A stretch of DNA of 63,360 nucleotides, the filler included, from Phoronis australis (Eukaryota > Animalia > Phoronida), in assembly GCA_002633005.1 (NCBI GenBank). It is 5 parts of 5 records of this genome, joined end to end, with 100 filler letters (N's around TTAATTAATTAA, not from the genome) between each part and the next. Parts side by side here need not be neighbours in the genome. Positions count along the whole stretch, not along the records: positions 41,569 to 49,155 come from NMRA01002003.1; 4 more parts are not named here. The stretch is one strand, 5' to 3'. The notes beneath the pieces are model-generated. The model did not search any database. It worked only from the letters and a program-made list of their open reading frames with translations, and was not told the DNA's origin. Both the position numbers and the translations under genes were made by a program. Numbering within the stretch: the stretch's first letter is position 1; each line of letters starts with the position of its first letter. This document shows, piece by piece, positions 17,501-60,025 of this stretch.

Positions 17501-17765
17501 ACATTGAAAAGTATAAAATCAAGTGCATCACCCCCTGACTTGCTAGGATCTTTTGAAACCCTTATACATTTAGAAGTAATTCAAGTAGAGCTGGACTGTG
17601 TTTTTGTTTGTTTCTTTTCTTTTCTTTTCTATGGCATTCCATTGTTAATTTCTGTTTCCTTAAATAAATTTATCAAAAAGCCTTATTTCACGTGCTTGAC
17701 CATTTTGTGTTATGAGTTATTTCATGTCAAAAACAGCCTGTCACATAAGTGTGTAAAAGAATCGA

Positions 17766-17847
17766 CGTCGTGAGCAGGATTCGAACCTGCGCGGGAAGAT
17801 CCCATTTGATTTCGAGTCAAACGCCTTAACCACTCGGCCATCACGAC
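17766..17847 (-). tRNA. tRNA-Ser(CGA)
   Basis: Minus strand GTCGTGATGGCCGAGTGGTTAAGGCGTTTGACTCGAAATCAAATGGGATCTTCCCGCGCAGGTTCGAATCCTGCTCACGACG, 82 nt. It has a perfect acceptor stem, anticodon arm TTTGA-CTCGAAA-TCAAA, long variable arm, intact A and B boxes, and a downstream TTTT terminator. Confidence 0.96.
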
Positions 17848-19614
17848 AAATCGGAAGTCTCAAGTGATTTTTATGTTATTTGAAGATTAGTTATTCTCAA
17901 AGATTCAAAATACTTCATATTGTTTTTAGTTTGATGATATAATGTTACACATTACTTTTACTATAAGAAATTAAGACATTTTGAACACAATTCAGATAAT
18001 GACCTTCCCAATGGTCACTGAAGAGTTAGGTTGCGGCCGCGGCCAGTTTCCAGAAAACAATTCTCTGGGATAGGCCAGGCTTGGGGGGTAGTGTACGCAT
18101 ATAGGCTGATTGAACGTGATTTGTTTGTATTTGTAAACATGTTGAGAATGAGAAAAGGCAGTTGCTCGGCTGTAGCTGCACTCTTCTGTAAGATGGCGGC
18201 CCCCTGTTACATTTGTGCGTGTATTGCTGGGTAGCGCCTGAGAAATCGGCTTCAATTTTGGGTAGCCCGTACAAGCTAGAAATGCAAAAAGTTCACATTA
18301 CTTTTGGACCACATTTTTGAAATCGGTAGGAAATTTTCTTTCAGAAACTAATGTGGGCTTGGGCCTATATGTGGTTTATCGGTAGGGAAATTGCCCCAAG
18401 ACCAAGCGGTGGTTTTTTGGGTAGACAGTGACCACCGTCTGTACCTGGCTCAGAAGAGAGGGTCATGCGCCGGAAGCTTTTCGGCGAATTATGCCTCACA
18501 CTGAATAAAATAACAAAGTCAAGTTGTTGTAATTAGAGAATTATATATTATAGTTCATACTATAACCAATAGGTGTCTCTGTAACTAGTTTCCCCACCAT
18601 TGTCTTTGTGACTACACATTGATATTACATAGAGGTAGGAATTATCACCTTTTCCACGAGTATTCACTTTATATCCCGTTTATAGTACATTATCATTACC
18701 CTTGAGCTATACAGTAAGCATTCTCTTTACTTGTACTTCTAGGTCTCCATCATTCTTTCAATAAAGGGTGAAACGAAATGACGAATGTTTATATCTAGTA
18801 ATATCATGTTGGTAAAATAAGAAGTGATTTCAAGGTCGTAGAGCAGAATTGTTAGCCTAATAGGCCTACCATGTGTGCACCGTTGCCGTCAGTGTCTTGT
18901 TTGTTGTATTTGATTTTTTTGCTGTCAAGGAATCATGCATCAAAACTCGAATTGTTTACTGTTTTTTTAAATTTTTGAAATACGTGTACATTTACTTGTT
19001 ATGTAGCATTTTTTACTCCGTTTATGACGCTGGTTTGTCTGCATCCCGAGTATTTGGCTCCCTTCAAGTTTTCCGTCTTCTTCGTTGTAAATATTCACAA
19101 GATATGAAGGATGCATAGGTAAATTGATTCCTGTTTTTGTATATATTATCATAGACTTTACGTGGACCGCCAACTCCGTATGTTTTCAATGGATGAAATC
19201 TGTGAACTTACGCACAAGCCATTACGTAATTATTTATTTGCCACACCTGGCCAAATTGTCGAGTTTTATTTCCTGCAAGTATGTCGTCTACTAATCATGG
19301 TTAGCTGTGGTGTGTTCGGGTGGTAGTAGCATTGCTAAAAGTACTCACTATACTAACAGTTCTGCTATTGGAAGACTTTGAACAGTGTTTCAATGCCGAA
19401 AATTTTTTTTTTTCGTTTTACTGGACAGTAAAATACTGAGATGCGAGAATTTCCTGTCACAATACACTACGGAAACTGAAACAGATAATTTAGGAGAGTG
19501 GCGCCTCCTCCAGGATAGTATGCAAGAAAATGTCGGGAGTTGCGAATTTGTTGTCTATAATCTATGACATTGTAGTCTAATACACCAATTCCTCCTACTT
19601 GTCTTGTGTTTCAG

Positions 19615-20663
19615 ATTGGATCATGGTGAGCTGCTGGTGAGAAGTTTGTGCGAATTAGAAAGCTGATAATAACCTGAGTTGTGGCATGGATGTATAAAAA
19701 ATTGCGTGATCAGCGTGTGACCAGTATGAATCAGTACAGTACAAGTAACATTTTTGATATTAAATGCGCTAGTGGCAGTGTTGCTGATGAGAATGTCAAA
19801 GATGCCATAGTTAAACAGGAGCCTGGTGAAGACCAAGATGTGAATAAGCAAGTCTGGTATAATGAAGGAGGTAATATATTTCAACCAGCAGAGTTTAAAC
19901 TTGAGTGTGATGATGGTGATCGTCTAGGTAGTGACTATTTCAAGCAGACGGATCTAGCATCATTTGAGAAGAACAAATCTCCTTTGCTGGAGCTGGGTGT
20001 TGTTGATGTATCTGGTGTTGCAAATGGACAGTATCGAGTGACTAGTGCGAAATCATTAGTACAGTTGCCATGTGGCAAATGTGATGCGGTGCTAGGTGGC
20101 GTTGCACATCTTGAGGAACATATGTTAATACACACAGGGGAGAATTGCTTCAGCAATACTGACTGTGGAACGTCATTTAAGACAAAAGATTGCCTCGTGA
20201 ACTCGTGGATGTGCATAGACCTTACAACTGTATGGATTGTGGAAAACTGTTTAAAAGTCACTGCTTCCTCATCATCCATCAAAGCAAACATATATGTGAG
20301 AGACCATACAGCTGTTGTGAATGTGCAAAGTCCTTTCAGAAGGAGCATTTTCTAGTTGAGCACAAAACTCTACACACAGGGGAGAAGCCATACAGCTGCT
20401 CTGAGTGCGGCAAGTTGTTTCGAACGAGTCATTCTCTGTCTAATCATAGGAGTGTACACACTGGCGAGATACCGTGCAAGTACAATGCGTGCAGAAGTTC
20501 ATACAAAATCCAATCTAATGTTATTGTTCGTAAGAGAACACGCACTGGTGCTCAGTTTGAAAAGCAGTTTGGCAAAAAATTTCATCTAGTTTACCACAGG
20601 ATTACACACACTGTTAAGACACCATACAAGTGTTGTGAATGCGGAATGCCAATTAAAACTTAG
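19615..20663 (+). pseudogene. C2H2 (Kruppel-type) zinc-finger gene exon, frameshifted and degenerate
   Basis: Acceptor-like TTTCAG ends at about 19615. VKQEP motif, then CGKC..HMLIHTGE, a frameshift near 20200, then several CxxC...H(TGEKPY) fingers. Confidence 0.8.
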
Positions 20664-20680
20664 TTTAATCATTTTTATGN

Positions 20681-21674
20681 GTCAGTACGGTATAAGAAAT
20701 TGCATGATCAGCGTGTGACCAGTATGAATCGGTACAGTACAAGTAACATTTTTGATATTAAATGCGCTGGTGGCAGTGTTGCTGTCAGAAGAGAAATAAT
20801 GTAAAAAATACTATAGTTAAACAGGAGCCTGGTGAAGACCAAGATGTGAATAAGCAAGTGTGGTATAATGAAGGAGGTAATATATTTCAACCAGCAGAGT
20901 TTAAACTTGAGTTTGATGATGGTGGTCGTCTAGGTAGTCGAGTGACTATTTCAAGCAGACGGATGCAGTATCATTTAGGAAGAACAAATCTCCTTTGCTG
21001 GAGCTGGGTGTTGTTGATGTATCTGGTGTTGCAAATGGACAGTATCGAGTGACTCGTGCGAAATCATTAGTACAGTTGCCAGGTGGCAAATGTGATGCGG
21101 TGCTAGGTGGCGCTGCACATCTTGAGGAACATATGTTAATACACACAGGGGAGAATTGCTTCAGCAATACTGACTGTGGAACGTCATTTAAGACAAAAGA
21201 TTGCCTCGTGAACTCGTGGATGTGCATAGACCTTACAACTGTATGGATTGTGGAAAATTGTTTAAAAGTCACTGCTTCCTCATCATCCATCAAAGCAAAC
21301 ATATATGTGAGAGACCATACAGCTGTTGTGAATGTGCAAAGTCCTTTCAGAAGGAGCATTTTCTAGTTGAGCACAAAACTCTACACACAGGGGAGAAGCC
21401 ATACAGCTGCTCTGAGTGCGGCAAGTTGTTTCGAACGAGTCATTCTCTGTCTAATCATAGGAGTGTACACACTGGCGAGATACCGTGCAAGTACAATGCG
21501 TGCAGAAGTTCATACAAAATCCAATCTAATGTTATTGTTCGTAAGAGAACACGCACTGGTGCTCAGTTTGAAAAGCAGTTTGGCAAAAAATTTCATCTAG
21601 TTTACCACAGGATTACACACACTGTTAAGACACCATACAAGTGTTGTGAATGCGGAATGCCAATTAAAACTTAG
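20681..21674 (+). pseudogene. Second copy (allele or assembly duplicate) of the C2H2 zinc-finger exon
   Basis: Near-identical to 19690-20663 after the N at 20680; same internal frameshift plus extra indels. Confidence 0.75.
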
Positions 21675-41468: not shown

Positions 41469-41570
41469 NNNNNNNNNNNNNNNNNNNNNNNNNNNNNNNN
41501 NNNNNNNNNNNNTTAATTAATTAANNNNNNNNNNNNNNNNNNNNNNNNNNNNNNNNNNNNNNNNNNNNCT

Positions 41571-42449
41571 GCTGCATCCGCCCCAAAGCCAGAGGCAGTC
41601 GATTCGCATTTCCACCTAGATCGGCTGACCTTCGCGTGCCAACGGTTTTCCCCCGAATTGGCCGGCCGGCTACTTACCATCCCTGAGATCACTGATATGA
41701 CGGCCATGCTCCCTTGCCCCTCAAAAAATCCCGTCCATTTAACAGGGGGCATAGCGGTATTTTGTGATCCGATCCACTATAAGTTTGTGGAAAAATCTAC
41801 TGAGGCGTTCCCTTCGGGTTGGAAGGCTGCCATAGGCATCCATCCGAAAAACGCCAAGTCGTACAATCCGGCCATGGAGAAGGAGATTTTCAGGCTCCTC
41901 CGGTTGCCCAACGTTGTTGCACTAGGTGAGTTGGGATTAGAAGAAGGCCACGGTAGCGCTGAAGTACAGCAGCGAGTAGTTGTGTCGCTGGTGCGCGGTC
42001 TTGCCCGCTTCCAGACGGTTCACGGCTCTCGTGTGCTTGTATTGCACCTTCGCGCCCGGGAGTCCACTTCGCCCTTTCACTCTGGTCATCAGTACATGAG
42101 ACGGTTGCTGAGTGACGTCTTGCCCAGAGCCCAACCAATCCACCTCCATTGTTTTTCTAGTAATCCCCAGGAGGTGCGATCATGGATGAAGGCTTTCCCA
42201 AATGCCTATTTCGGCTTTGCTGCCACTGCTCGTCACTTTTCCTCTCCCCAAGCTAAAGCTTTGGCAGCCGTGCCCCTTAATCGGCTTCTTTTGGAGACCG
42301 ATTCCCCCCATTTAGCGACGTCCTCTCGACCTATGGCCCCATATTTCATTGGGGAAGTGGCCTGGAAAATAGCACGCCTGCGTCACTGTAATGCTGACTA
42401 TTTGTTGGAGCAAGCGGCCAAGAACGCACGTGTTTTATACCGACTGTAA
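41571..42449 (+). CDS. tatD: TatD-family metal-dependent nuclease (5' end in gap), retrotransposon-borne
   Basis: Open frame from the contig edge: AVDSHFHLDRL (HxH), AAIGIHP, VVALGELGLE, LVLHLR, IHLHCFS, GF, PLNRLLLETDSPHL, NARVLY. Intronless. Confidence 0.92.
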   Translation, partial: AASAPKPEAVDSHFHLDRLTFACQRFSPELAGRLLTIPEITDMTAMLPCPSKNPVHLTGGIAVFCDPIHYKFVEKSTEAFPSGWKAAIGIHPKNAKSYNPAMEKEIFRLLRLPNVVALGELGLEEGHGSAEVQQRVVVSLVRGLARFQTVHGSRVLVLHLRARESTSPFHSGHQYMRRLLSDVLPRAQPIHLHCFSSNPQEVRSWMKAFPNAYFGFAATARHFSSPQAKALAAVPLNRLLLETDSPHLATSSRPMAPYFIGEVAWKIARLRHCNADYLLEQAAKNARVLYRL

Positions 42450-42775
42450 GTCCGGAGAGGGTCTCTAGTGAGTATTTCTACCACTAGGTGTCTGCTCTCC
42501 CGTCCATGGGGGATGGGTGGTTCCCCATAAGGGTGACTATTTATTATTTATTTCATGTGTTCAAGGGTGCTGGCTCTTTGAACTTCTATATTATTTGATG
42601 GTACTTCTGTTCTTAACCCATGTGTATTATGCTCTCATTCTAGGGGAACTGTCCTTGTGCTACTAACACCCTGAATTTTCTTCTTTTTTGGAGGGGGGAG
42701 GAGGATCAAAAATTTTCGGGCATTTTTTGATAAATTGGCAATGATGTTGTTTCCCGGGTGGGTCCCACGCTTTTT

Positions 42776-42789
42776 AGGGAGGAGGGAAA
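42776..42789 (+). promoter_or_regulatory. Polypurine tract (PPT)
   Basis: AGGGAGGAGGGAAA, preceded by TTTTT and directly abutting the LTR's TGTTGTA. Confidence 0.85.
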
Positions 42790-43039
42790 TGTTGTAATCG
42801 GCAACATCATTGGCCCTTTGTTTTTCCTGTGGCGTCTTGTGATTGGTCCGTCTTTGTGTGTTCCCTGTATGTAGGATATATAAGTCGTTGGCGCCACTGC
42901 CGGACGGGTTTTTTTCAAGAACCGGCAATAGATACACAAGTCTATGGTTGCTCCGCTTGGTGCCAACTGACCGACGAGCTGATATCTCATAACAGTAAGT
43001 ACTCTTGTGCCTAACTAGTGAACCTGTAGGAATACAACA
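42790..43039 (+). repeat. Long terminal repeat (250 bp)
   Basis: TGTTGTAATC...GAATACAACA terminal inverted repeat (9 of 10 match); ATTGG at about 42842; TATATAA at 42877-42883; bounded by the PPT and PBS. Confidence 0.88.
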
Positions 43040-43041
43040 TT

Positions 43042-43055
43042 TGGCGTAGTCGGCA
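43042..43055 (+). promoter_or_regulatory. Primer binding site, tRNA-Ser type
   Basis: TGGCGTAGTCGGCA lies 2 nt after the LTR and is complementary to the ...UGCCGACUACGCCA 3' end of metazoan tRNA-Ser(AGA/UGA). Confidence 0.88.
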
Positions 43056-43442: not shown

Positions 43443-45038
43443 ATGTCAGTAGGTTTCAAAATTCCTATTAACTACTGCCGTGAGTCGGACTTGTTTGATC
43501 TGCCGGGAGTTGACGAAGAGATCGTCCTAGAAATAGTTAACTTCCGGGAGAGATGCCCTATCGGTCGTCATAATATCTATCAGATATCTGACGATTGGAT
43601 AGTGACCAGCGCGGTGACTGACCGGGTGGATTATTCCCTAACCCCCAGTTCAGGTTCCCGACACTCTGATTTGCCGGCGGGGTTAGCTCAAGTGGCTGAC
43701 GCTTGCGACAGGCTGAATAGGTCCCCTAGTCCTCGTTTGGGTAGAACCACTAGGTACCAAGGGGGTTCCCAATACCAAGTCGATGAGGGTAGGCGCGACA
43801 GTGGTATAAGTCCCGGCGTTTATACTCCTCCTAATAGGCGAAGAGGGTATTCGGGAAACGTAGGAGGTAGGTGTGACAGTGGTCTGGAGCCCGACACTTT
43901 TACTTCTCCTGTTCGCCCCAGGGGGCACTTGGAAAGTAGAGAGGGAAGGCGTGACAGAGGCGGAAGTCCCGGCGCAAGAAATGCCAGGGGGTATAAGGTA
44001 GATTCGCATGCTCCTCATAATTTAGTTTTTAAGGGCTTGCGTAATTCCTGGAAGGATTTCCACTGGAAGTTTAGCCGTTTTGCAAGGGAAAACTTCTGGT
44101 CCGGAGATAAATGTTTAGCAGAGCTAAGTCTCTGCTGTGAAGGGGATGCACTCCGCTTTCTTTGTAATTTTACAGAAAGTCGGCCAGAGGCATTATATGA
44201 CGAAGTAGTAGAAGCCATGAGGAAACGTTTTGGTGTTGCGTCAGGGGTGCCAGGAGTAGACCAATTACAATTTCACTCCGCATCCCAAAAACAAGCAGAG
44301 TCCCTACATCAATGGGCTGACAGGCTGAATCATCTGTATTTTTCGGCCTTTCCAAACCCCTCAGATGGTGACCGCCATCAGGCTATACTCAGGTTTTGCT
44401 TGGGGTTAAGTGATCAGGATATAGGCAAGCAGGTGTTAAATGGTCGTCCAGAATCCATAGACCAAGCACTGGATCTAGCCGTGTGGTTCTCTACGACGAA
44501 GGGCCTAATGCCATCGCGTAAGAGTGTTACTTTTAGGGGAGATGAACTGAGCGAGGATGTTAGTAGGCTACGTCTCGTCTCTAGTCAGAAAAGGTCGCCC
44601 ATTAGGTTTTCGCCAATTTCGGGTCGCCAATCCCCACCTGATTCCCCCAACAGTTCTCCCGGGTCTAACAACTTAGCAGAGAGGTGCAGAGTGTTAGAGT
44701 CACGGGTAGATTTTTTGACAGAGGATAACAAAGCTCTGCATAAGCAGATGGACAATCTGTCCAAAGAAATGAACCAAAATTTCTCTAAGGTTGAAGGTCG
44801 TTTTTCTAAAATAGACACCAATTTAGAGAAAATGCTGGGTTTATTAGCCTCGGGCCGGGCGTCTCCTAGGAAATCACCGTCCAGATCACCCGGCAATTCC
44901 CCACGAAAAGCCGGAGAGTGTTTCAACTGTGGGGAGACTGGGCATTATAAATATTCATGTCCCAATAAACCATCGGCCAATGTAAGACTAGCCTCAACGT
45001 CTCCAGATTGTTTAAACTGGAACGGACTGAAGGACTAG
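43443..45038 (+). CDS. gag: Gag protein (N-terminal HhH-like segment, capsid-like domain, coiled coil, CCHC knuckle)
   Basis: 531-aa intact ORF; W..F..F.....W....LCCEGDA capsid pattern; Q...ES....ADRL major-homology-like region; CFNCGETGHYKYSC. Confidence 0.92.
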   Translation: MSVGFKIPINYCRESDLFDLPGVDEEIVLEIVNFRERCPIGRHNIYQISDDWIVTSAVTDRVDYSLTPSSGSRHSDLPAGLAQVADACDRLNRSPSPRLGRTTRYQGGSQYQVDEGRRDSGISPGVYTPPNRRRGYSGNVGGRCDSGLEPDTFTSPVRPRGHLESREGRRDRGGSPGARNARGYKVDSHAPHNLVFKGLRNSWKDFHWKFSRFARENFWSGDKCLAELSLCCEGDALRFLCNFTESRPEALYDEVVEAMRKRFGVASGVPGVDQLQFHSASQKQAESLHQWADRLNHLYFSAFPNPSDGDRHQAILRFCLGLSDQDIGKQVLNGRPESIDQALDLAVWFSTTKGLMPSRKSVTFRGDELSEDVSRLRLVSSQKRSPIRFSPISGRQSPPDSPNSSPGSNNLAERCRVLESRVDFLTEDNKALHKQMDNLSKEMNQNFSKVEGRFSKIDTNLEKMLGLLASGRASPRKSPSRSPGNSPRKAGECFNCGETGHYKYSCPNKPSANVRLASTSPDCLNWNGLKD

Positions 45039-46130
45039 GTCTAAATTCAGTCCATGATTCCCAATCAGGCCTGCCCAAAGACTATTCGACTCTGATTGGT
45101 TTGGTGGGAGGGATCAAAAATCAGTTAAAGCGTGCAAATAAAAGAACCAAGAAAACTGTTCGTTCCACGGGGGTTGGGACGGATTCTGAAGATTCTTTCT
45201 CCCTAGCAGATTCCGACAGTGATTCTAATCCGGGTTCTCTTGCTAGTAAGGATACGTTGACTGTAGATCCACCTATCAAGTCAGATCTAGATCGAGCGAC
45301 TCCGAATGTAGAACGGACCGACTCTGATTCAATAAAATCGTCGCCGGAGGTAGTAAACATATGTAAACTATCTTCAGGTCGTACGTATTACATTCCCATA
45401 GAGTTGAAGGGTNTAAGGATACGTTGACTGTAGATCCACCTATCAAGTCAGATCTAGATCGAGCGACTCCGAATGTAGAACGGACCGACTCTGATTCAAT
45501 AAAATCATCGCCGGAGGTAGTAAACATATGTAAACTATCTTCAGGTCGTACGTATTATATTCCCATAGAGTTGAAGGGTTTGAGGTTAAATAGTATCCTG
45601 GATAGTGGTGCCGACAGCACTGTGATTTCTACCAGGGTATCTAAATTTCTCTCGGGCGTCCAAGCCGTGCACGATGTAAAGGTGACAACGGCCGCCAAAG
45701 GTCTGGCTCTTGGGGGGTTCAGGACCAATAATATTCCCATTACTATTAATTCCAAAACATATCGAACCTCAGTGGTAGTTTCGGATATTCAGGACGATTG
45801 CCTCTTGGGGTTAGATATCATGAAACAATTGGGATGTGTTCTGAACATGAAAGAGGATGAACTGACTATTGAGGGGAAAACAATTCCAATGGAATACGGT
45901 ATCCCATCCAGATATCTTCCTCCCGTGGTAGTGAATTCAAATGTTTTGATTCCTGCCAATACGGTGAAGAGGTTAAGTGGGATCGAATTTCCAAAGATTG
46001 CCCCCATGGTTATGTTTGATCCCTCGCCATCTCTAGATCCACGTATTTCGATCCCCCGCTCAATACATGACCCCCAATCCTGTTCTTCCCTTTTTGTTTT
46101 CAATTCATCGGAACATGGGGTAAGATTAAC
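45008..46130 (+). CDS. pol: Pol N-terminus and aspartic protease (broken by an N-joined duplicate at 45413)
   Basis: SILDSGADSTVIS catalytic motif; CLLGLDIM. Confidence 0.85.
45011..45073 (+). promoter_or_regulatory. -1 programmed ribosomal frameshift signal
   Basis: T TTA AAC in the gag frame, a 6-nt spacer, then stem GGACTGAA / TTCAGTCC; pol is open in the -1 frame. Confidence 0.8.
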
Positions 46131-46148
46131 NAGGGGAAAACAATTCCA

Positions 46149-47809
46149 ATGGAATACGGTATCCCATCCAGATATCTTCCTCCCGTGGTAGTGAATTCAA
46201 ATGTTTTAATTCCTGCCAATACGGTGAGAAGGTTAAGTGGGATCGAATTTCCAAAGATTGCCCCTATGGTTATGTTTGATCCCTCGTCATCTCTAGATCC
46301 ACGTATTTCGATCCCCCGCTCAATACATGACCCCCAATCCTGTTCTTCCCTTTTTGTTTTCAATTCATCGGAACATGGGGTAAGATTAACAGGAGGGACT
46401 ATCTTAGGGGTAGTGGAACCCGTGGAGTCTGAAGGAGTAAAAGATACTCAGGTTCGGGAACACTGCTCCGTTAAGGTAGCTAAATCAAAGGAAACTCCTG
46501 GGGGTGTTGAGACACTGTCGGGGAGATTACCAAGGCGAACTCCTGGGAATGTTAATGCACTTTCGGGAGGTTTACCTAAAAAGCTAACTTTGCTGTTTGA
46601 CCAATCTTCAATTCATTTAAGTGAGGGGGAAAAGTCACAGTTGAAGAAGCTATTGTTAGAATTTGAAGATGTGTTCGCTGCCAGTGATTTGGATCTAGGA
46701 AATTTTACGGCAGTAGAGCATGTCATAGACACCGGGACAGCAAAACCTATTAAAATGGGTATGCGCCGGACGCCAGCCTGTTTTGTGCAGGAAGAGGAGG
46801 ATAATCTAAAGAAAATGTTAAATGCAGGAGTAATTGTCCCCTCTATGAGTGACTGGGCCGCAGCACCTGTGTTAACCCGCAAGGCTGACGGGACAGTGCG
46901 TTACTGTATTGATTACAGGGCGTTAAATAGTGTTACCCAAAAAGATGCATGGCCTTTACCATTAATTGAAGAATGTATAGACCTTCTTGCTGGAAATGTT
47001 TGGTTTAGTAAGTTAGATGCAAACTCTGCTTATTGGCAAATCAAAATCCGTGAGGAGGACCGTAAAAAAACTGCATTCATTACAAAATATGGTTTGTACG
47101 AGTTTCGCTCTATGCCTTTTGGTTTATGTGGAGCTCCTAGTACATTTTCTCGGGCCATGAGTCTAGTTTTAAGAGGTTTGAACTGGAACACGGTATTGGC
47201 GTTTCTAGACGACATATTAGTGTTGGGTACCAGTTTTGAGGACCACCGGTCTAATCTTACAGGCGTTCTTGCTCGTTTCCGGGAGTTCGGCCTGAGATTG
47301 AAACCCAGAAAGTGCGCCCTATTTCAAAAGAAAGTAGAATGCCTGGGTAGGACGGTGGGTCCGGAAGGGTTGGAGATGGGAAATGACAAAATTAAAAAAG
47401 TCCAAGAATGGCCTATTCCCCATAGTAAGAAACAGTGTCAAAGTTTCTTGGGTTTTGCAAATTACCATAGGCTATTCATCAAAGATTTTGCAAAATTAGC
47501 TGTACCTCTTTATGAGGTTACAGGGTCGAAGAAAACCTTTCAGTGGGACGATGCACAACAGAATGCTTTCGATCAATTAAAGGTAGCTCTAACATCACCA
47601 CCTGTTTTAGCCTTACCGAATAAAAATGACGAATTTATTCTTGATTGTGACACCTCTGATAAGGCTATTGGCTGTTGTCTTTCCCAAGTCCAGAACGGGT
47701 TGGAGCGAGTTATCTCGTACTCCAGCTTCGCTTTAGTGGACGAACAAAAACGTTATTGTACTACTCGGAAGGAGCTGCTGGCTGTTGTACGATTTACACA
47801 CCAGTTCAG
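46149..47809 (+). CDS. pol: Pol reverse transcriptase and start of RNase H
   Basis: WAAAPVL.RKADGTVRYCIDYRALN, FSKLD...AYWQI, MPFGL..APSTF, AFLDDIL, FLGFANYHR.FIKDFA. Confidence 0.93.
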
Positions 47810-47810
47810 N

Positions 47811-49155
47811 ACTGGAACACGGTATTGGCGTTTCTAGACGACATATTAGTGTTGGGTACCAGTTTTGAGGACCACCGGTCTAATCTCACAGGCGTTCTTG
47901 CTCGCTTTCGGGAGTTCGGCCTGAGATTGAAACCCAGAAAGTGCGCCCTATTTCAAAAGAAAGTAGAATTTCTGGGTAGGACGGTGGGGCCGGAAGGGTT
48001 GGAGATGGGAAATGACAACATTAAGAAAGTCCAGGAATGGCCTATCCCCCATAGTAAGAAACAGTGTCAAAGTTTCTTGGGTTTTGCAAATTATCATAGG
48101 CTATTCATCAAAGATTTTGCAAAATTAGCTGTACCTCTTTATGAGGTTACAGGGTCGAAGAAAACCTTTCAGTGGGACGACGCACAACAGAATGCTTTCG
48201 ATCAATTAAAGGTAGCTCTAACATCACCACCTGTTTTAGCCTTACCGAATAAAAATGACGAATTTATTCTTGATTGTGACGCCTCTGATAAGGCTATTGG
48301 CTGTTGTCTTTCTCAAGTCCAGAACGGGTTGGAGCGAGTTATCTCGTACTCCAGCTTCGCTTTAGTGGACGAACAAAAACGTTATTGTACTACTCGGAAG
48401 GAGCTGCTGGCTGTTGTACGATTTACACACCAGTTCAGGCATTACCTTTTGGGTAGGAAATTTAAAGTACGGACGGACCACAGTAGTTTGAGATGGCTGT
48501 TAAACTTCAAATCTCCTTCGGGACAATTAGCTCGTTGGATACTACAGTTACAGCAGTTTTCGGGTATGGAAATAATATACCGTCCCGGAGTTAAACATAT
48601 CAATGCTGATGCTTTGTCACGTATTCCTTCGTCCTCCTGCCCCGCGTACAAGCTAGGGGTAGAGCCCAAAGACCTTCCTTGTGGGGGTTGTCCCACCTGT
48701 TGCAAATCCCATAAGGAATGGTATAATTTCGTACAGGAAGTTGACGACACTATCCCTCTTGCACAACGCCCCCGGGCAGTTATGGTTGACAAAAGTACCA
48801 ATACCCGTGTGCGATCTGTGTATGTGTCTGATACGCACAAACATTCTCTGTTGGGTAGTCAAAACGTCCCAGAAGAGTTTATCCCTGACGACTTAGGTGA
48901 GGAGGGGTTTGCATTAACTATATGTAATCCCGAGTTGACGGATGTCCCTTGTATGGATGACTGTTTCCTAATCTCCATAAATAGGGATGATCGAAACCCT
49001 TGTTTTGTGAGAGCATTGTCAATAGAGGATGAATCCGACTTTGACCGCAAGCAGAGGGAGGACACAAATCTGACTTTCCTATTTGACTGGTTAGATAACG
49101 GTGTAGAACCTTCACAATTTCGCTTGTTTATCGCCAGCGCTACGGCCAAAAACTA
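47811..49155 (+). CDS. pol: Pol RT C-terminus (overlapping duplicate), RNase H and linker toward integrase; truncated by the gap
   Basis: CDASDKAIG, ELLAVV, RTDHSSL.WL, HINADALSR. Confidence 0.9.
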
Positions 49156-52100
49156 NNNNNNNNNNNNNNNNNNNNNNNNNNNNNNNNNNNNNNNNNNNNT
49201 TAATTAATTAANNNNNNNNNNNNNNNNNNNNNNNNNNNNNNNNNNNNNNNNNNNNTGCCCTGTATGTTACTATTACCATTATGTTTTGGTCAGTGTTTTG
49301 AGCAATACGCTAGTGTTTCATTCTTGTGGTTATGATCTACATAATACAGCAGTGATTTTAGTCAACATTTCGGTCTTTTCGAACAGTTTTTCAAAATTAC
49401 AAATTTGACTCTTACTGAGGGGGCCTCCTCGTGGCAAGAGTTGGGCAGTGTGAAATGCTTCAGAACATTCGCACTGGCAAACACCCTCACGTTGACATCA
49501 TTAATGTGTTCCGAGAAACAGTATACCCATAAGCTACAAAACACACAATGTGCCAAGAAATTTATCTAACCATCGGGAACTTTATTTTGCTGATGTATTG
49601 ATTACAAATATGGCTTAGTTTAGCGATACACTGAAGTACTAAGTCTGGGCATTAACATAGCCGTGGGCGCACAACAGGGCTATCCCCTCCTCATTGCAAA
49701 CCCTTCCCCTGATAGAGACTCATTTCAGTTTTGTTCTTGCCTAGCTTCCCTGTCCCTGTCCCCTATTCATGCAGTGCTTCCAAGTTGCCTCACATTACAG
49801 TCATTGGTTGCCAACAAGTTTAGCAACCTCTTGAATAATTCTGACTACACCAGTGTTGCTATGGAAATAGGTTACTAAAGACCCGACTGCCATTCAAGTT
49901 GCACATTCCCTGCCTTGTGAAAGCATAAACCATCATGAAATTAACACCTGGGCCCTGGGTTTCAACTTTTTACTCAGAATTATTTTTATTTTCTATTCTA
50001 GTTTTGTTTGAACTTGAGATAATTTTCTTTTATTCTATGTGCTTATTTATGGCAATTAATGATCCCAGCCTTAGAGCTAAGAGTTCGAGTAAGAGGTTTT
50101 GCTAGAAATCTTGAGTTTTTACTCAAATTTCAGCTCGAATCTATTGGTCATTAAGTACTATCTTGATCTCCCAAGAAAGTGGACTAGAAGTGACAAAAAC
50201 AATTTCGAGCCCTAGAGGTGTATTCCCAAAACGTGATCGCATAATCCCTTTTCAGGGGTTTAAATCAATCCATACAAGACTGGGCTGGAATCTGTTTAGC
50301 CCAAAAAGCATTTAAATGCTATGTGGAAAATATTAAAACATCTGTACTAAACTGTGTTGAAAAAATGAACCCTTTTGAAGTTCCTTATCCACAAATTGTA
50401 CCATTTTTCTAGCTGCTATTAACCCAACCTCTTTTTAGAATCGTCATGTAACAATATAAGATTGGTCTGGTACAAACAATGTTTTTTTTGGCCAAATTAG
50501 TACCAAAAATCACAAGCACTCACATGGAGATTGGCATTGGATTTAGATACTAGTGTCTGATGTCAATCTTTATATGTCTGATGGTGATTAGACTCTTGAT
50601 CTCGTACTGTTCCTTACTGAGATTACATGTGATATATTGGCTTCGGTTGAACTGATAGTTTGTTGTTGCTTAAGACCTGGTGCAATAACTATGGCTTTGA
50701 GCAATAACAAAGTTTGAATTCTTCCAAGTCCACTAAAGAACAAGTTGAGACAGGGATATATGCAGGGCTTGGAATTTTCCTTTTTTGTTTTTATTTCCTC
50801 TTATTCGATTTCCAGCTTCTTTTTTATCATCATTTTTTGGCTAACTTGATTCATGCAAAAACATTTATTTCAGTTTAATTTTACAACACAAAAATATTTC
50901 TTAACACAAGCCTATTTGTGAAATGATAGATCACCTGGAAAATTTTCCTCTTATAGTCATTCCAATTCCTGTATATAGTGGTAATTTGTTCTGATCAAAA
51001 TTTATTCTTTTTCACATAAGACGCATTTATAGCAACTTTAAGGGATTTATTTCGAAGGAAATCTGGAAGCTAGAAGACACCATCTGATAAGCGCATTCTG
51101 AAATAACAATTGTGCTTGTACTTTCCAAGATGTTCAACTCCCATTGTTAGGTATAGGGATAGGGTTCATTCCATCATCCTTGGGCTTTCAGAGTACCCTC
51201 CTAAAACCATTCCAAGGGGGTACTCCTACAGGTTTATACAAGATACGACACTCAACTGGGTGATTTTTCTCAAACAATTTCTCTTCAAAATGGTGCTTGA
51301 AAAATCCCTACCAAAGCAAACTTTTTCCCATGAATACAACGGGTTTGACTATGGAAGTTAAAAACACTGCAAATGGTACCTTTTTCCTACAGCAAAAGGG
51401 GTTTTAATACGATACCTGTATTTTTAAAACCTTGGACACCAGACTCATTTTTGACAACTGGAATCTCTGAGCCGACTTCTTCAAGCTTAATGGGTGAAAA
51501 AGACAGCTGTCCAAGAATTACTACGAAAGGATTCTGTTGTTAGCATTTGCTCTTATAAAAAGATTGTGCATTTGAAACATTAGGCTACAATTTTATTGAA
51601 GTCCAAATCTCGGACCACAAACATAATGTTTTTTAGCCACTGTCTAAATGGGTGGAGATTCTTCTAGTACCATATATGCACAAAACTAAAGGTTGGGGCC
51701 CATTTGGAACACCTCTCGGGTATTTTGGTAGCTACAAATTTACCCTCGGAACATCTGGAGCACCTCGGCTATTTTTCCTATTTACATGTGCAAATTTTTC
51801 TTAGAAACACTTTAGGTATTTTCGTAGCCTCAAATATCCTCTCGGAGATGAATGTTATCCAAAATATGGCAAGTCACTTGATTTTCAATCTTGACAATAA
51901 TAGGCTAACTGAAGTCCGCACACATGGAGAGAGCGTTCACCTATTAGGTGAAATTTGAGGTTACGAAAACACCCGAGGTGTTCTGGATGCCCTTGGAAGT
52001 TAATGTTTTCAGTGCATGCTCGAACTTTATGGCCAATCATTCCCACTAAGTTTGATAATCACACAGGTTAAATTCACCTCGAATGAGAAGTTTGAGGTCC

Positions 52101-55680: not shown

Positions 55681-56689
55681 GAAATGTTGAATTAGCATTT
55701 GAAACGTCTTGTGACTGATCTCCATTCGATAGGTTATTGTCCTGGGTTTATGCAATTACTAAGCTGGGTACACACCCATCATAGGCTATAACGAGTATAT
55801 ATGTTCCCATTTTCCTTTAGTTGACGACAAAAGACTATCAGCCAGATCCTCATTCGCAGCGTTAAATATTGAAAACTTTTAACTATTTATCATATATACC
55901 ATTCTTACCAATTCATAAGAATCGTTGATATGAATTAATCAATTTGTAACAAACCATGACCAACCGGTCACTGTCTGTATAAAACTGCATAAAACCTTTT
56001 GATGACACATTTAGCAAATTACTTTCAAAAATGCTTGCCTAGAGCTTGCTTACAATAAAAGCATTCATAGGTTGAAGGTCATGAGGCTTGTATACGATCA
56101 CAAAAATGACCTTGAAAGAGTTGTTTTGTTTAAAATCAACTTTGTATAGTACAATCTTGTGACGAAGCAGCTTCGTTTAACTGTTTACAAAGAGAACGTC
56201 GTTACGAAATATATGAGGAAGTTCGTGTCAAGTTTCAGTAACGGGGACAACAAGACTTTCGAGTTCTATACGTCNATGAATAAAAAAAATGAGTTACCTG
56301 TAATTTTATTCTTACTATGCCACGGCGAGTACTCACCTGGATAGGCAAAAACAGACTTAAACTTCTTCTTGTTCACAAATAATAAAATTAAAAGTTTGAA
56401 GCCGTTGTCACGGGAAAAACCTTTGCTAAGACACGTTAATGTGCATGCGCGGAAATGGGGCAAATCTTTTCCCGTCATCGAGACGGGAAAAACAATTGCC
56501 GGAAAAAAACCTTTGCTCCCGTTGAGCCTTATTGCGTGTGTTTTAAAATTTAATCAAATGTTTACTTGGTGTTTATAGATTTAATATTGCAGCTGTTTAC
56601 AGCTATTATGTTCCGAAGCTTATTTTGTGGTAAGACAAGGACAGCGAGGCACAGCCGGTGATTTTAGTGGGCGGTGAGGGAGCAGACTA

Positions 56690-57842
56690 AGTGTCTTGGG
56701 AAATGTGTCTGCCATGTGGATGTGAACATGCGGTGACGTTTTGCAAATAGCTTTTTGCGGTCCTACATGTCTCAGGCTCACAAAATACATTTGCCATGCG
56801 GTTGGCCATTCGTATAAGTGCCGAGAAATAGTGCAGTACTTGAACAATGTCTCTGTAAATACCTTTGCTATACGTTGACCAATGTTTGGTAACTTTTGTA
56901 ATTTATGTTAGGAATATCCCGCGATCGAGACAAAACAAATAATTGCCCAGACATTTTTGTTTGCTCTAGTGCATGCAGGGAAAGACAAAAGCAAACGTTT
57001 TTCCCGTTTTCGAGACTGCAAAACACTGAAGCCGTGTCGGGAAATACGTTTGATCCTGGAAACACATCCACCCGTCACTGCTTGGCCTTTCGTAGAATGT
57101 GCACATTAATCCTTTGCCATGCGGTTGGTAACTATATTAATATCCCACAATTATCGGGAAATATGTTTGCTCCGCGAAATACACTCGTCTCTGCATGCAA
57201 TTGTTGCCATTCTTGGACTATAGACATAGCAAATGGATTTCCCGCTACGGACTTTCTCGGGGAAATACATTTGCCATAAGGTTAGTCAAAGTTTGGTAAC
57301 TTGTGTAAATTATATTGTTATGTTCTTGTTTTTTATATTCTACACTTATGTATTCTAGTTTTCTTATACCGTTATTAGTACCCATATTTTATCATAGTCT
57401 AATCTTGTTATTGCCCGGGTTCCGCTTCCTCGGATGGGCGATGTCAGCATTCCCGTGCTGCCATTATGGCGTTTTGTCCATGCCCATCTTGCAGAGTCTT
57501 ATTTAGTTTTATCTATTTACGTCATAATAAATGACATTATTCCCAATCCTCCTCTTGTTTGACTCTGCAACATAGCTCGTGGAGTATCCCAGGCAAAATA
57601 GATTATGATAAATATAAGTAAGTTATTAAACTTTGACTAACCGTAGTATGGTAAATGTATTTCCCGAGACACTGCGTTGCGGGAAATTAGTTTGCTAATG
57701 CGGCGATTCTATGAAAGGTAACATTTGGATGCAGGGACGAATGCATTTCGCGGTGTAAAGATATTTTCCGACTGCTTCGACCACGGGAAAAACATTTGCT
57801 CGTCTCTACTACGGTTAGTCAAAGTTTAATAACTTACTTATA
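56690..57842. repeat. Diverged repeat units ending in a 230-bp segment with perfect 36-bp inverted arms
   Basis: Shared motifs ATACATTTGCCAT and GTTAGTCAAAGTTT; 57613-57648 is the exact reverse complement of 57807-57842. Confidence 0.7.
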
Positions 57843-59218: not shown

Positions 59219-60025
59219 TCAAAGCCGTGATTTAAGAAACTTTAGTTGGTTACTAAAAATGCGTTCCACATCAGACCAAGAATAAGCAGTCAAGTTTTGT
59301 TCAACAAAAATCCTCAGTTCAGCTGCAGAATTCACGGTACGTATTCCGTAGGCTGTTTCCCCACTCTTAACTTCATACAATAATATTCCATTTCTGGTTT
59401 CTTTGAGTGCGTAAGACAATCCTGGAGGACAAATGATTGATATCGCCTTCTGGTGCAATGAACTACCACTACTGGGCAAGTAGCCTTTCTCATTAAACCA
59501 TACAGCTAACTCATCCAGTGAAAACGCATCTAGGTTGAAAGTATAAGCATCTACCCACTGGGGCTTTTTAATATCTGTAAAGTATGGATCCGCCCTATGT
59601 ATGAACTGCCGACGAACGTAATGATCACCAACTTTGGCATATTTGCACAACATATGAATTTGCTGATAAGATGGAGATTCTTCTTCAAAATCCAGAGGGA
59701 ACGCATCAAGAGCTGGCTGTCCATTTGCTACATCCACCACAAAGGTATCTCCCTCTTTCTGTAGATCTTTAACAATAATAATCATATGCCGTGGATACTT
59801 GTCCTTCGGTGCGATCGCTAAAGTGCAGTAGGTATGGAAACCTAAACCTGCCAGCAGCGCATGCAAGAATGTATGCAGCTCATAACACAGACCACCTTGT
59901 CGGCTCATAATTCTCTCTTTGATGGTGTCCCATCTCGGAAGACACCTCTGATCCATAGGAATCATTAACAGATTGAAGTTGGTAAACGGGATGTGTTGAT
60001 TAAATGCTGTAATTATCTGTTTCAG
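59219..60025 (-). CDS. NAT: Arylamine N-acetyltransferase (5' end in gap)
   Basis: Frame is open from the gap: HIPFTNF (PFENL-like), RQGGLCYELH (catalytic Cys), RHMIIIV (His), FVVDVANG (Asp). No introns in the visible part. Confidence 0.9.
   Translation of the reverse strand: MKQIITAFNQHIPFTNFNLLMIPMDQRCLPRWDTIKERIMSRQGGLCYELHTFLHALLAGLGFHTYCTLAIAPKDKYPRHMIIIVKDLQKEGDTFVVDVANGQPALDAFPLDFEEESPSYQQIHMLCKYAKVGDHYVRRQFIHRADPYFTDIKKPQWVDAYTFNLDAFSLDELAVWFNEKGYLPSSGSSLHQKAISIICPPGLSYALKETRNGILLYEVKSGETAYGIRTVNSAAELRIFVEQNLTAYSWSDVERIFSNQLKFLKSRL

Follow-up and report, generated by a model that had tools for sequence, protein, structure and literature searches.

The window analyzed here, a stretch of 63,360 nt from the Phoronis australis assembly GCA_002633005.1, contains parts of a Ty3/Gypsy LTR retrotransposon in which a TatD nuclease domain lies in the env position. 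The earlier note on this DNA had proposed a Gypsy lineage with TatD as an accessory open reading frame (ORF) in that position, and the proposal was borne out by related contigs, the RT tree, codivergence of integrase and TatD, and read depth. Enzymatic non-env third ORFs (ORF3s) are known in bdelloid rotifers; a literature search found no description of TatD in an LTR retrotransposon or as the ORF3 of a Gypsy element, and Repbase, Dfam, subscription papers, or supplements may describe these families. The main texts of PMC5408684, PMC13524379, and PMC6431247 do not contain the term TatD, and the available main text on the mollusc and annelid Gypsy clades MolGy, CsRN1, and C-clade (PMC6238403) contains no ORF or PHD description.

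The TatD domain (positions 41571 to 42449, + strand) forms the C-terminal end of ORF3 and consists of 292 codons without interruption. It matched PF01026 over profile positions 1 to 252 of 253 (E = 6e-30) and retained seven of seven metal ligand residues (H13, H15, E120, H159, H193, E242, and D244). AlphaFold predicted a TIM barrel with high confidence (pLDDT 92.8), and the top matches of this model in a structure comparison were all members of the TatD family (TatD/YcfH/TATDN; TM, 0.67 to 0.75). The HxH motif and the E, H, H, and E-x-D ligands on a TIM barrel identify a class II TatD. Profile match, ligands, and fold confirm the TatD ORF with metal ligands described in the earlier note, where the ORF was also called intact; that word applies to the TatD domain and not to the whole ORF, because the window ORF begins at a gap (N run, 41469 to 41568) that hides the 5' part of ORF3 and its link to pol. 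Relatives of the ORF have 200 to 800 extra residues N-terminal to TatD. The GExGxE motif had been listed as canonical, and this was incorrect for the family, in which 124 of 125 members have D at that position. All seven ligands were kept in 118 of 125 family TatD domains, a count that is circular for columns D11, H13, and H15 because those columns served to cut out the domains. Judging from the ligands and from the selection described below, the window frame very probably encodes an active two-metal nuclease.

The TatD stop codon (42449) is followed by the 3' untranslated part of the internal region (42450 to 42775, +), which had continuous read depth, and then by a PPT (42776 to 42789, +) adjoining an LTR that begins at 42790; the TatD end had been placed about 330 bp upstream of such a PPT, in agreement with the 326 bp found. 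The 250-bp LTR (42790 to 43039, +) has TG...CA ends, 7-bp inverted termini, a TATA-like box at 42877, and a splice-donor-like motif (42995 to 43000, +) 45 nt before its end. A check for an LTR pair and a target-site duplication found this one LTR in the window, with contigs carrying foreign flanks at both of its ends (42790/42791 and 43040/43041). The adjacent PBS is tRNA-Ser-like (43042 to 43055, +), with 11 of 14 positions complementary to the tRNA-Ser(CGA) 3' end plus CCA, and was the one match of the PBS search (0.03 expected). An LTR with TG...CA ends, followed by a PBS and preceded by a PPT, is what the termini of a Ty3/Gypsy element comprise. The tRNA that pairs with the PBS is presumably a tRNA-Ser isoacceptor other than the tRNA-Ser(CGA) of the window, whose gene is located at 17764 to 17848 (- strand).

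Downstream of the PBS, gag (43443 to 45038, +) encodes an HhH-like N terminus of the kind with which gag of these elements starts (HHH_3 scored in relatives), a PNMA-like capsid segment, and a CCHC knuckle. Based on profile matches and relatives, pol (44969 to 49155, +) encodes protease, RT, RNase H, and then a segment that matches, in relatives, the beginning of the integrase N-terminal region; in those relatives the Ty3/Gypsy order PR-RT-RH-IN is complete. Assembly duplications in pol occur at single Ns (45413, 46131, and 47810), and pol stops before the integrase core at a second gap (N run, 49156 to 49255), where the layout of relatives places the integrase core, the PHD finger, and the 5' part of ORF3. 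The PHD finger and the ORF3 N terminus of the window element would both fall in gaps and are attributed to it from relatives. The window order is gap-TatD-PPT-LTR-PBS-gag-pol-gap. TatD had been described as lying on the same strand as gag-pol; the strand agrees, but in the window gag-pol follows the LTR and TatD precedes it. Because gag-pol is downstream of the only LTR and pol is cut at 49156, proof that integrase and TatD are contiguous does not come from the window.

That contiguity was found in relatives, in which the full order is LTR-PBS-gag-pol(PR-RT-RH-IN-PHD)-ORF3(low-complexity region, C2H2/helical domain, TatD)-PPT-LTR. The order gag-PR-RT-RH-IN-TatD was present on one strand in seven contigs (L189, L194, L198, L201, L202, L203, and L208). 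Integrase was upstream of TatD in 15 of 22 related contigs, the others being too short or starting inside ORF3 (six) or carrying a bacterial-type TatD (one). A clear PPT plus TG followed TatD in 10 of 24 loci, 186 to 1,342 nt past the stop, with several other loci ending too early. The earlier note's alternative that the PPT of other copies is never preceded by TatD was not borne out. In protein P0253, IN-PHD-TatD is a single frame, and the Mytilus gene model P0185 has a Gypsy protease joined to TatD. Four contigs (L191, L193, L195, and L202) are permuted like the window, and three (L189, L195, and L203) have exact terminal overlaps of 88 to 91 nt. Both features are expected from short-read assembly of an element with a collapsed LTR; a tandem array of the element may also give them. 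The window almost certainly represents the same element as these relatives, assembled through one collapsed LTR.

The context contigs came from three bacterial bins, and we infer that they are animal DNA; 3 of 380 scanned genomes of the MAG's family had matches. In a Sedimenticola bin (G001; also G371 and G252), Gypsy integrase was matched 40 times and TatD frames of the element type numbered 20. The bin appears to be heavily contaminated by animal DNA, and such contamination would account for database entries of this family labeled as bacterial TatD. A bacterial operon origin of the "Sedimenticola/Thiodiazotropha TatD" matches was ruled out, as these sit in gag-pol contigs. Broader scans returned almost exclusively bacterial TatD/YcfH, with this family in 1 of 80 metagenome, 0 of 6 viral, and 1 of 80 genome loci. 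Four contigs (L203, L184, L185, and L186) form a second, divergent TatD subclade with ORF3s of approximately 500 to 590 amino acids (aa); L203 is a full gag-pol-TatD contig without a PHD.

The window RT was 61 to 67% identical to those of six elements bearing both TatD and PHD and formed a 100/100 clade with them. At an integrase identity to L087 of 59% or more, 11 of 11 contigs had TatD, and at greater distance 1 of 31 did (20 of the 31 inspected); many of the 30 contigs without TatD end soon after pol. The integrase and TatD trees of 12 elements contained the same groups (Mantel r = 0.64, P = 0.0014), and the cargo was therefore inherited together with the element. This agreement, and the placement of the window RT inside the TatD-element clade, support the proposal of the earlier note. 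Since an intact nuclease has been kept for long across a whole retrotransposon clade, it is presumably useful to the element. The proteins closest to the window TatD were 30 to 40% identical to it, those with names coming from bivalves, gastropods, sea urchins, and hemichordates, and many close relatives are proteins of 500 to 1,100 aa with TatD at the end.

Sequencing depth was evaluated with contigs of one sample and raw reads (151 nt, Hi-C) of a second individual. In both, depth was unbroken from TatD through the untranslated region into the LTR. No contig spanned the interval from the TatD stop to the LTR among the best 24 of 474 pieces listed, and the raw reads measure 151 nt; support for the TatD-LTR junction therefore consists of continuous depth, not of a single spanning molecule. 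The dominant TatD contig had 4.3 to 5.9 times the depth of a single-copy stretch (around 56533 to 57253; the host NAT-like frame, itself elevated, was unsuitable as a baseline) and 0.8 to 1.3 times that of gag. Raw-read depths were 31 for TatD, 26 for gag, 33 for the LTR (not clearly above TatD or gag), and approximately 0.8 for low host bins, a ratio to host bins that is unreliable because the run is Hi-C of another individual. The possibility that TatD is a single-copy host TATDN gene conflicts with these contig depths and with its position outside the TATDN2 branch. Among 40 of 401 variant sites listed, 14 of 18 in TatD were silent (expected fraction, 0.34; P = 2e-4), as were 11 of 14 in gag; the silent excess among the listed TatD sites is the signal of selection among copies that the earlier note had proposed looking for. 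The window element is a few-copy family under purifying selection.

Ahead of TatD, ORF3s of relatives had a low-complexity stretch and a basic cluster as well as a conserved C2H2/helical domain, which measures approximately 135 aa. The basic cluster preceded the C2H2 finger in 28 of 45 proteins versus 157 of 845 background windows. The C2H2/helical domain was modeled with a pLDDT of 94.6, and no clear match to it was found in Pfam, PDB, or a viral library (best Foldseek E values, 2.9 for PDB and 0.4 for viral structures). A VIA structure comparison gave a best Z of 3.9 with weak helix-turn-helix-like rows, which does not in itself prove a new fold, and an Atlas comparison returned only hypothetical clusters. 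A query with the domain retrieved 155 clusters at 50% identity, and TatD follows in 36 of the 40 proteins examined in which the domain is trailed by 300 residues or more. In five full ORF3s, TatD was the only domain family matched in Pfam. Some mollusc gene models (P0379, P0382, P0394, P0334, and P0352; Patella and Mytilus) have the C2H2/helical domain but no TatD. In one of them the domain is attached to an RBM10-like gene and in another to an EF-hand gene; domestication or chimeric annotation is possible. An 875-aa protein, P0288, consists of a UvrD helicase fused to a TatD domain.

The env genes of errantiviruses and retroviruses are expressed from a spliced subgenomic mRNA. Like them, ORF3 lies after pol and before the PPT, with a donor-like motif near the 5' end of the element and an acceptor-like motif before the ATG. 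Of 12 LTR segments, 9 contained the donor-like motif, which has a background rate of 0.15 per 300 nt; it lay 45 to 62 nt from the end in five of six LTRs of known end, including the motif at 42995. An acceptor-like site preceded the first ATG in 8 of 11 long ORF3s, compared with 45 of 507 background ATGs. Because both motifs are enriched, an env-like spliced message is predicted for ORF3, which is likely made from its own mRNA joining the donor near the LTR end to the acceptor just before its ATG. Unlike env, ORF3 encodes an enzyme, without a match to an envelope family and without a conserved transmembrane helix; maximum hydropathy over 19 residues was 0.9 to 1.8 in 20 main-clade ORF3s, in which no conserved hydrophobic helix was seen. 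ORF3 thus differs from the membrane glycoproteins of env-carrying (errantivirus-like) Gypsy elements. TatD may have joined an old regulatory gene that already occupied the ORF3 slot. Eight more distant Gypsy elements in the same bin (L216, L217, L218, L219, L220, L223, L225, and L226) have ORFs of 250 to 550 aa past pol, with C2H2-like fingers, low-complexity tails, and no TatD, and L214 has a 270-aa ORF there that appears SGNH-like by eye.

A PHD finger was present at the end of pol in 64 of 120 RT relatives. It was nearest to the PHDs of PHF2, PHF8, CXXC1, and DIDO (E = 5e-14), which we take to be readers of H3K4me3, and the cage residues M and W were kept in 64 of 64. Chromoviruses are Gypsy elements with a chromatin-reader domain in pol. 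Like them and like Gypsy-7a of Chlamydomonas, described as carrying a PHD in the available text of PMC9940879, these elements have a chromatin-binding domain in the polyprotein; unlike either, they have a PHF2/PHF8-like PHD at the integrase C terminus, co-occurring with a TatD ORF3. A complete Tpt1/KptA RNA 2'-phosphotransferase domain (PF01885) was observed in two pol proteins of this RT neighborhood (P0509, residues 41 to 216, E = 4e-54; P0517, residues 1065 to 1234, E = 4e-43), before the protease in one and between integrase and PHD in the other. It is the second enzyme of RNA processing to have been captured, and its place differs between the two proteins.

The closest parallels to the TatD ORF3 are the bdelloid rotifer LTR retrotransposons Juno and Vesta, in which ORF3 is enzymatic and non-env (DEDDy 3'-5' exonuclease or GDSL; PMC5408684, text available in part). 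In both cases, a Gypsy-type element carries an enzymatic non-env ORF3 between pol and the 3' LTR, with intact catalytic residues and a putative function. The enzymes differ, with a TIM-barrel TatD here, distinguished by Pfam match and fold from the DnaQ-like DEDDy there. The present cargo codiverges with integrase across a clade, in contrast to the family-specific exonuclease ORF3s of bdelloids, and has an unmatched C2H2/helical domain fused to it; the named relatives here are from molluscs (bivalves and gastropods), sea urchins, and hemichordates.

The origin of the domain was investigated with a mixture-model tree of 66 rows, which included 16 bacterial rows and four basal rows of unknown origin and lacked TATDN3 and eukaryotic TATDN1. 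Element TatDs formed a 98/98 clade. Its sister group consisted of proteins that are annotated as animal TATDN2 or look like it (100/94 for the two groups together), and the 16 bacterial rows lay elsewhere in the tree; quick trees broadly agreed. In the best tree the element TatD is thus placed as sister to animal TATDN2, with the alternative of holding the element rows with the bacterial rows not rejected by the AU test (P = 0.39). In PDB profile scores, bacterial YcfH was nearer to the element family than TATDN1/3 were, among listed matches that included no TATDN2 chain. The TATDN2 proteins of molluscs and spiders form a group from which the element clade is excluded; on this topology the capture would be old. 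Like animal TATDN2 (PMC10085689 and PMC10711561, as far as available), the element TatD has HxH, all metal ligands, a VFCxP segment, and a C-terminal TatD after a long low-complexity N terminus. It differs in having only approximately 25 to 33% identity, DSHFHxDR in place of D[ST]HCHxD[FL], other N-terminal domains, and one open frame in multiple copies inside a retroelement; being multicopy and outside the TATDN2 branch in the 98/98 element clade, it is not a host TATDN2 orthologue.

The reading that we tentatively favor, with a chance somewhat short of even, is that ORF3 of this low-copy Gypsy element is a nuclear nuclease, translated from its own spliced message, that clears R-loops or similar RNA:DNA structures for the element. 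A spliced LTR-to-ORF3 message would yield the protein as for env genes, the basic cluster and C2H2 finger suggest a nuclear location, and the TatD domain would cut via two metals. In the nucleus it would strip R-loops of their RNA strand, either at transcribed copies of the element itself or at active chromatin where the PHD-guided integrase would insert. Clearing of R-loops or hybrids is favored by the position of ORF3 outside Gag-Pol, its nuclear look, and its closeness to TATDN2, as well as by the retention of RNase H motifs in pol. According to the available text of PMC10711561, human TATDN2 breaks down RNA in R-loops and in hairpins and hardly acts on DNA, and its R-loop binding is no longer detectable without the N terminus. 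The N terminus of ORF3 differs from that of TATDN2, and the weakest step, that ORF3 works in the nucleus on R-loop RNA as TATDN2 does, is held more tentatively than the rest.

If the nuclear nuclease acted instead on DNA, it might trim or repair integration intermediates (gaps, 3' ends, and AP sites) or destroy unintegrated cDNA of competing elements, which we consider unlikely without being far-fetched. Bacterial TatD/YcfH and human TATDN1/3 are single-stranded DNA 3'-5' exonucleases and AP endonucleases (PMC10085689, available text), the nuclear features of ORF3 fit equally, and the TATDN2 origin is statistically unsecured, as the AU test indicates; against this, the best trees put the element clade with TATDN2-like proteins, and the DNase activity of human TATDN2 is small (PMC10711561, available text). 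Action in the particle or cytoplasm, by trimming or proofreading reverse transcription intermediates or by clearing cDNA or hybrids that would alert innate sensors, the idea raised in the earlier note, is quite unlikely. The 3'-5' chemistry would fit, 3'-end processing was proposed for the bdelloid DEDDy ORF3s (PMC5408684, available text), and IN-PHD-TatD is a single frame in P0253, but as a rule ORF3 has a frame, an acceptor, and a start codon to itself and thus lacks a Gag-Pol route into particles, the RNase H motifs of pol are intact, and the basic clusters and C2H2 finger indicate the nucleus. Less probable again is a function of ORF3 against silencing, through degradation of small RNAs or of the structured RNAs that these target. 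This reading draws by analogy on hairpin RNA being cleaved by human TATDN2 (PMC10711561) and on a silencing-related role raised for the DEDDy ORF3s (PMC5408684), both in the available texts, and on the C2H2-type, regulatory-looking ORF3s of distant Gypsy elements in the same contig set. That TatD is a host gene or a separate nonautonomous element sharing the LTR, with gag-pol adjacent by assembly accident, is very improbable: gaps flank TatD and gag-pol, assembly duplications are visible, and many relatives are named "TATDN2" or "YcfH-like" in databases, but depth is multicopy and near that of gag, the window TatD and RT both group with pol-anchored elements, independent contigs repeat the layout, and named host TATDN2 proteins are on a separate branch.

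As a small, well-folded enzyme with an assayable substrate, the TatD ORF3 could tell whether R-loops, hybrids, or cDNA ends limit retrotransposition, and the elements offer a new protein domain (ORF3 C2H2/helical) and a candidate integration-targeting PHD. They also explain apparent TatD/TATDN2 expansions in bivalve and echinoderm annotations, such as a cluster of 47 members (90% identity) that is represented on six or more large Dreissena contigs. A wider scenario, rather doubtful as a whole, is that an ancient and so far undescribed clade of Gypsy elements in marine invertebrates acquired, before the mollusc/arthropod split, a TATDN2-type nuclease and kept it as an R-loop resolvase, fused to a domain without structural match and paired with an H3K4me3-reading integrase, so that the element would target active promoters and clear R-loops there. 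If so, hundreds of "TATDN2/YcfH-like" genes of shellfish and sea urchins in databases would be retroelement genes.

Elsewhere in the window, an arylamine N-acetyltransferase-like frame (59219 to 60025, - strand) is cut by a gap, and a C2H2 zinc-finger stretch is duplicated (19678 to 21674, + strand). Many near-identical tandem duplications beside single Ns in the window look like assembly artifacts.
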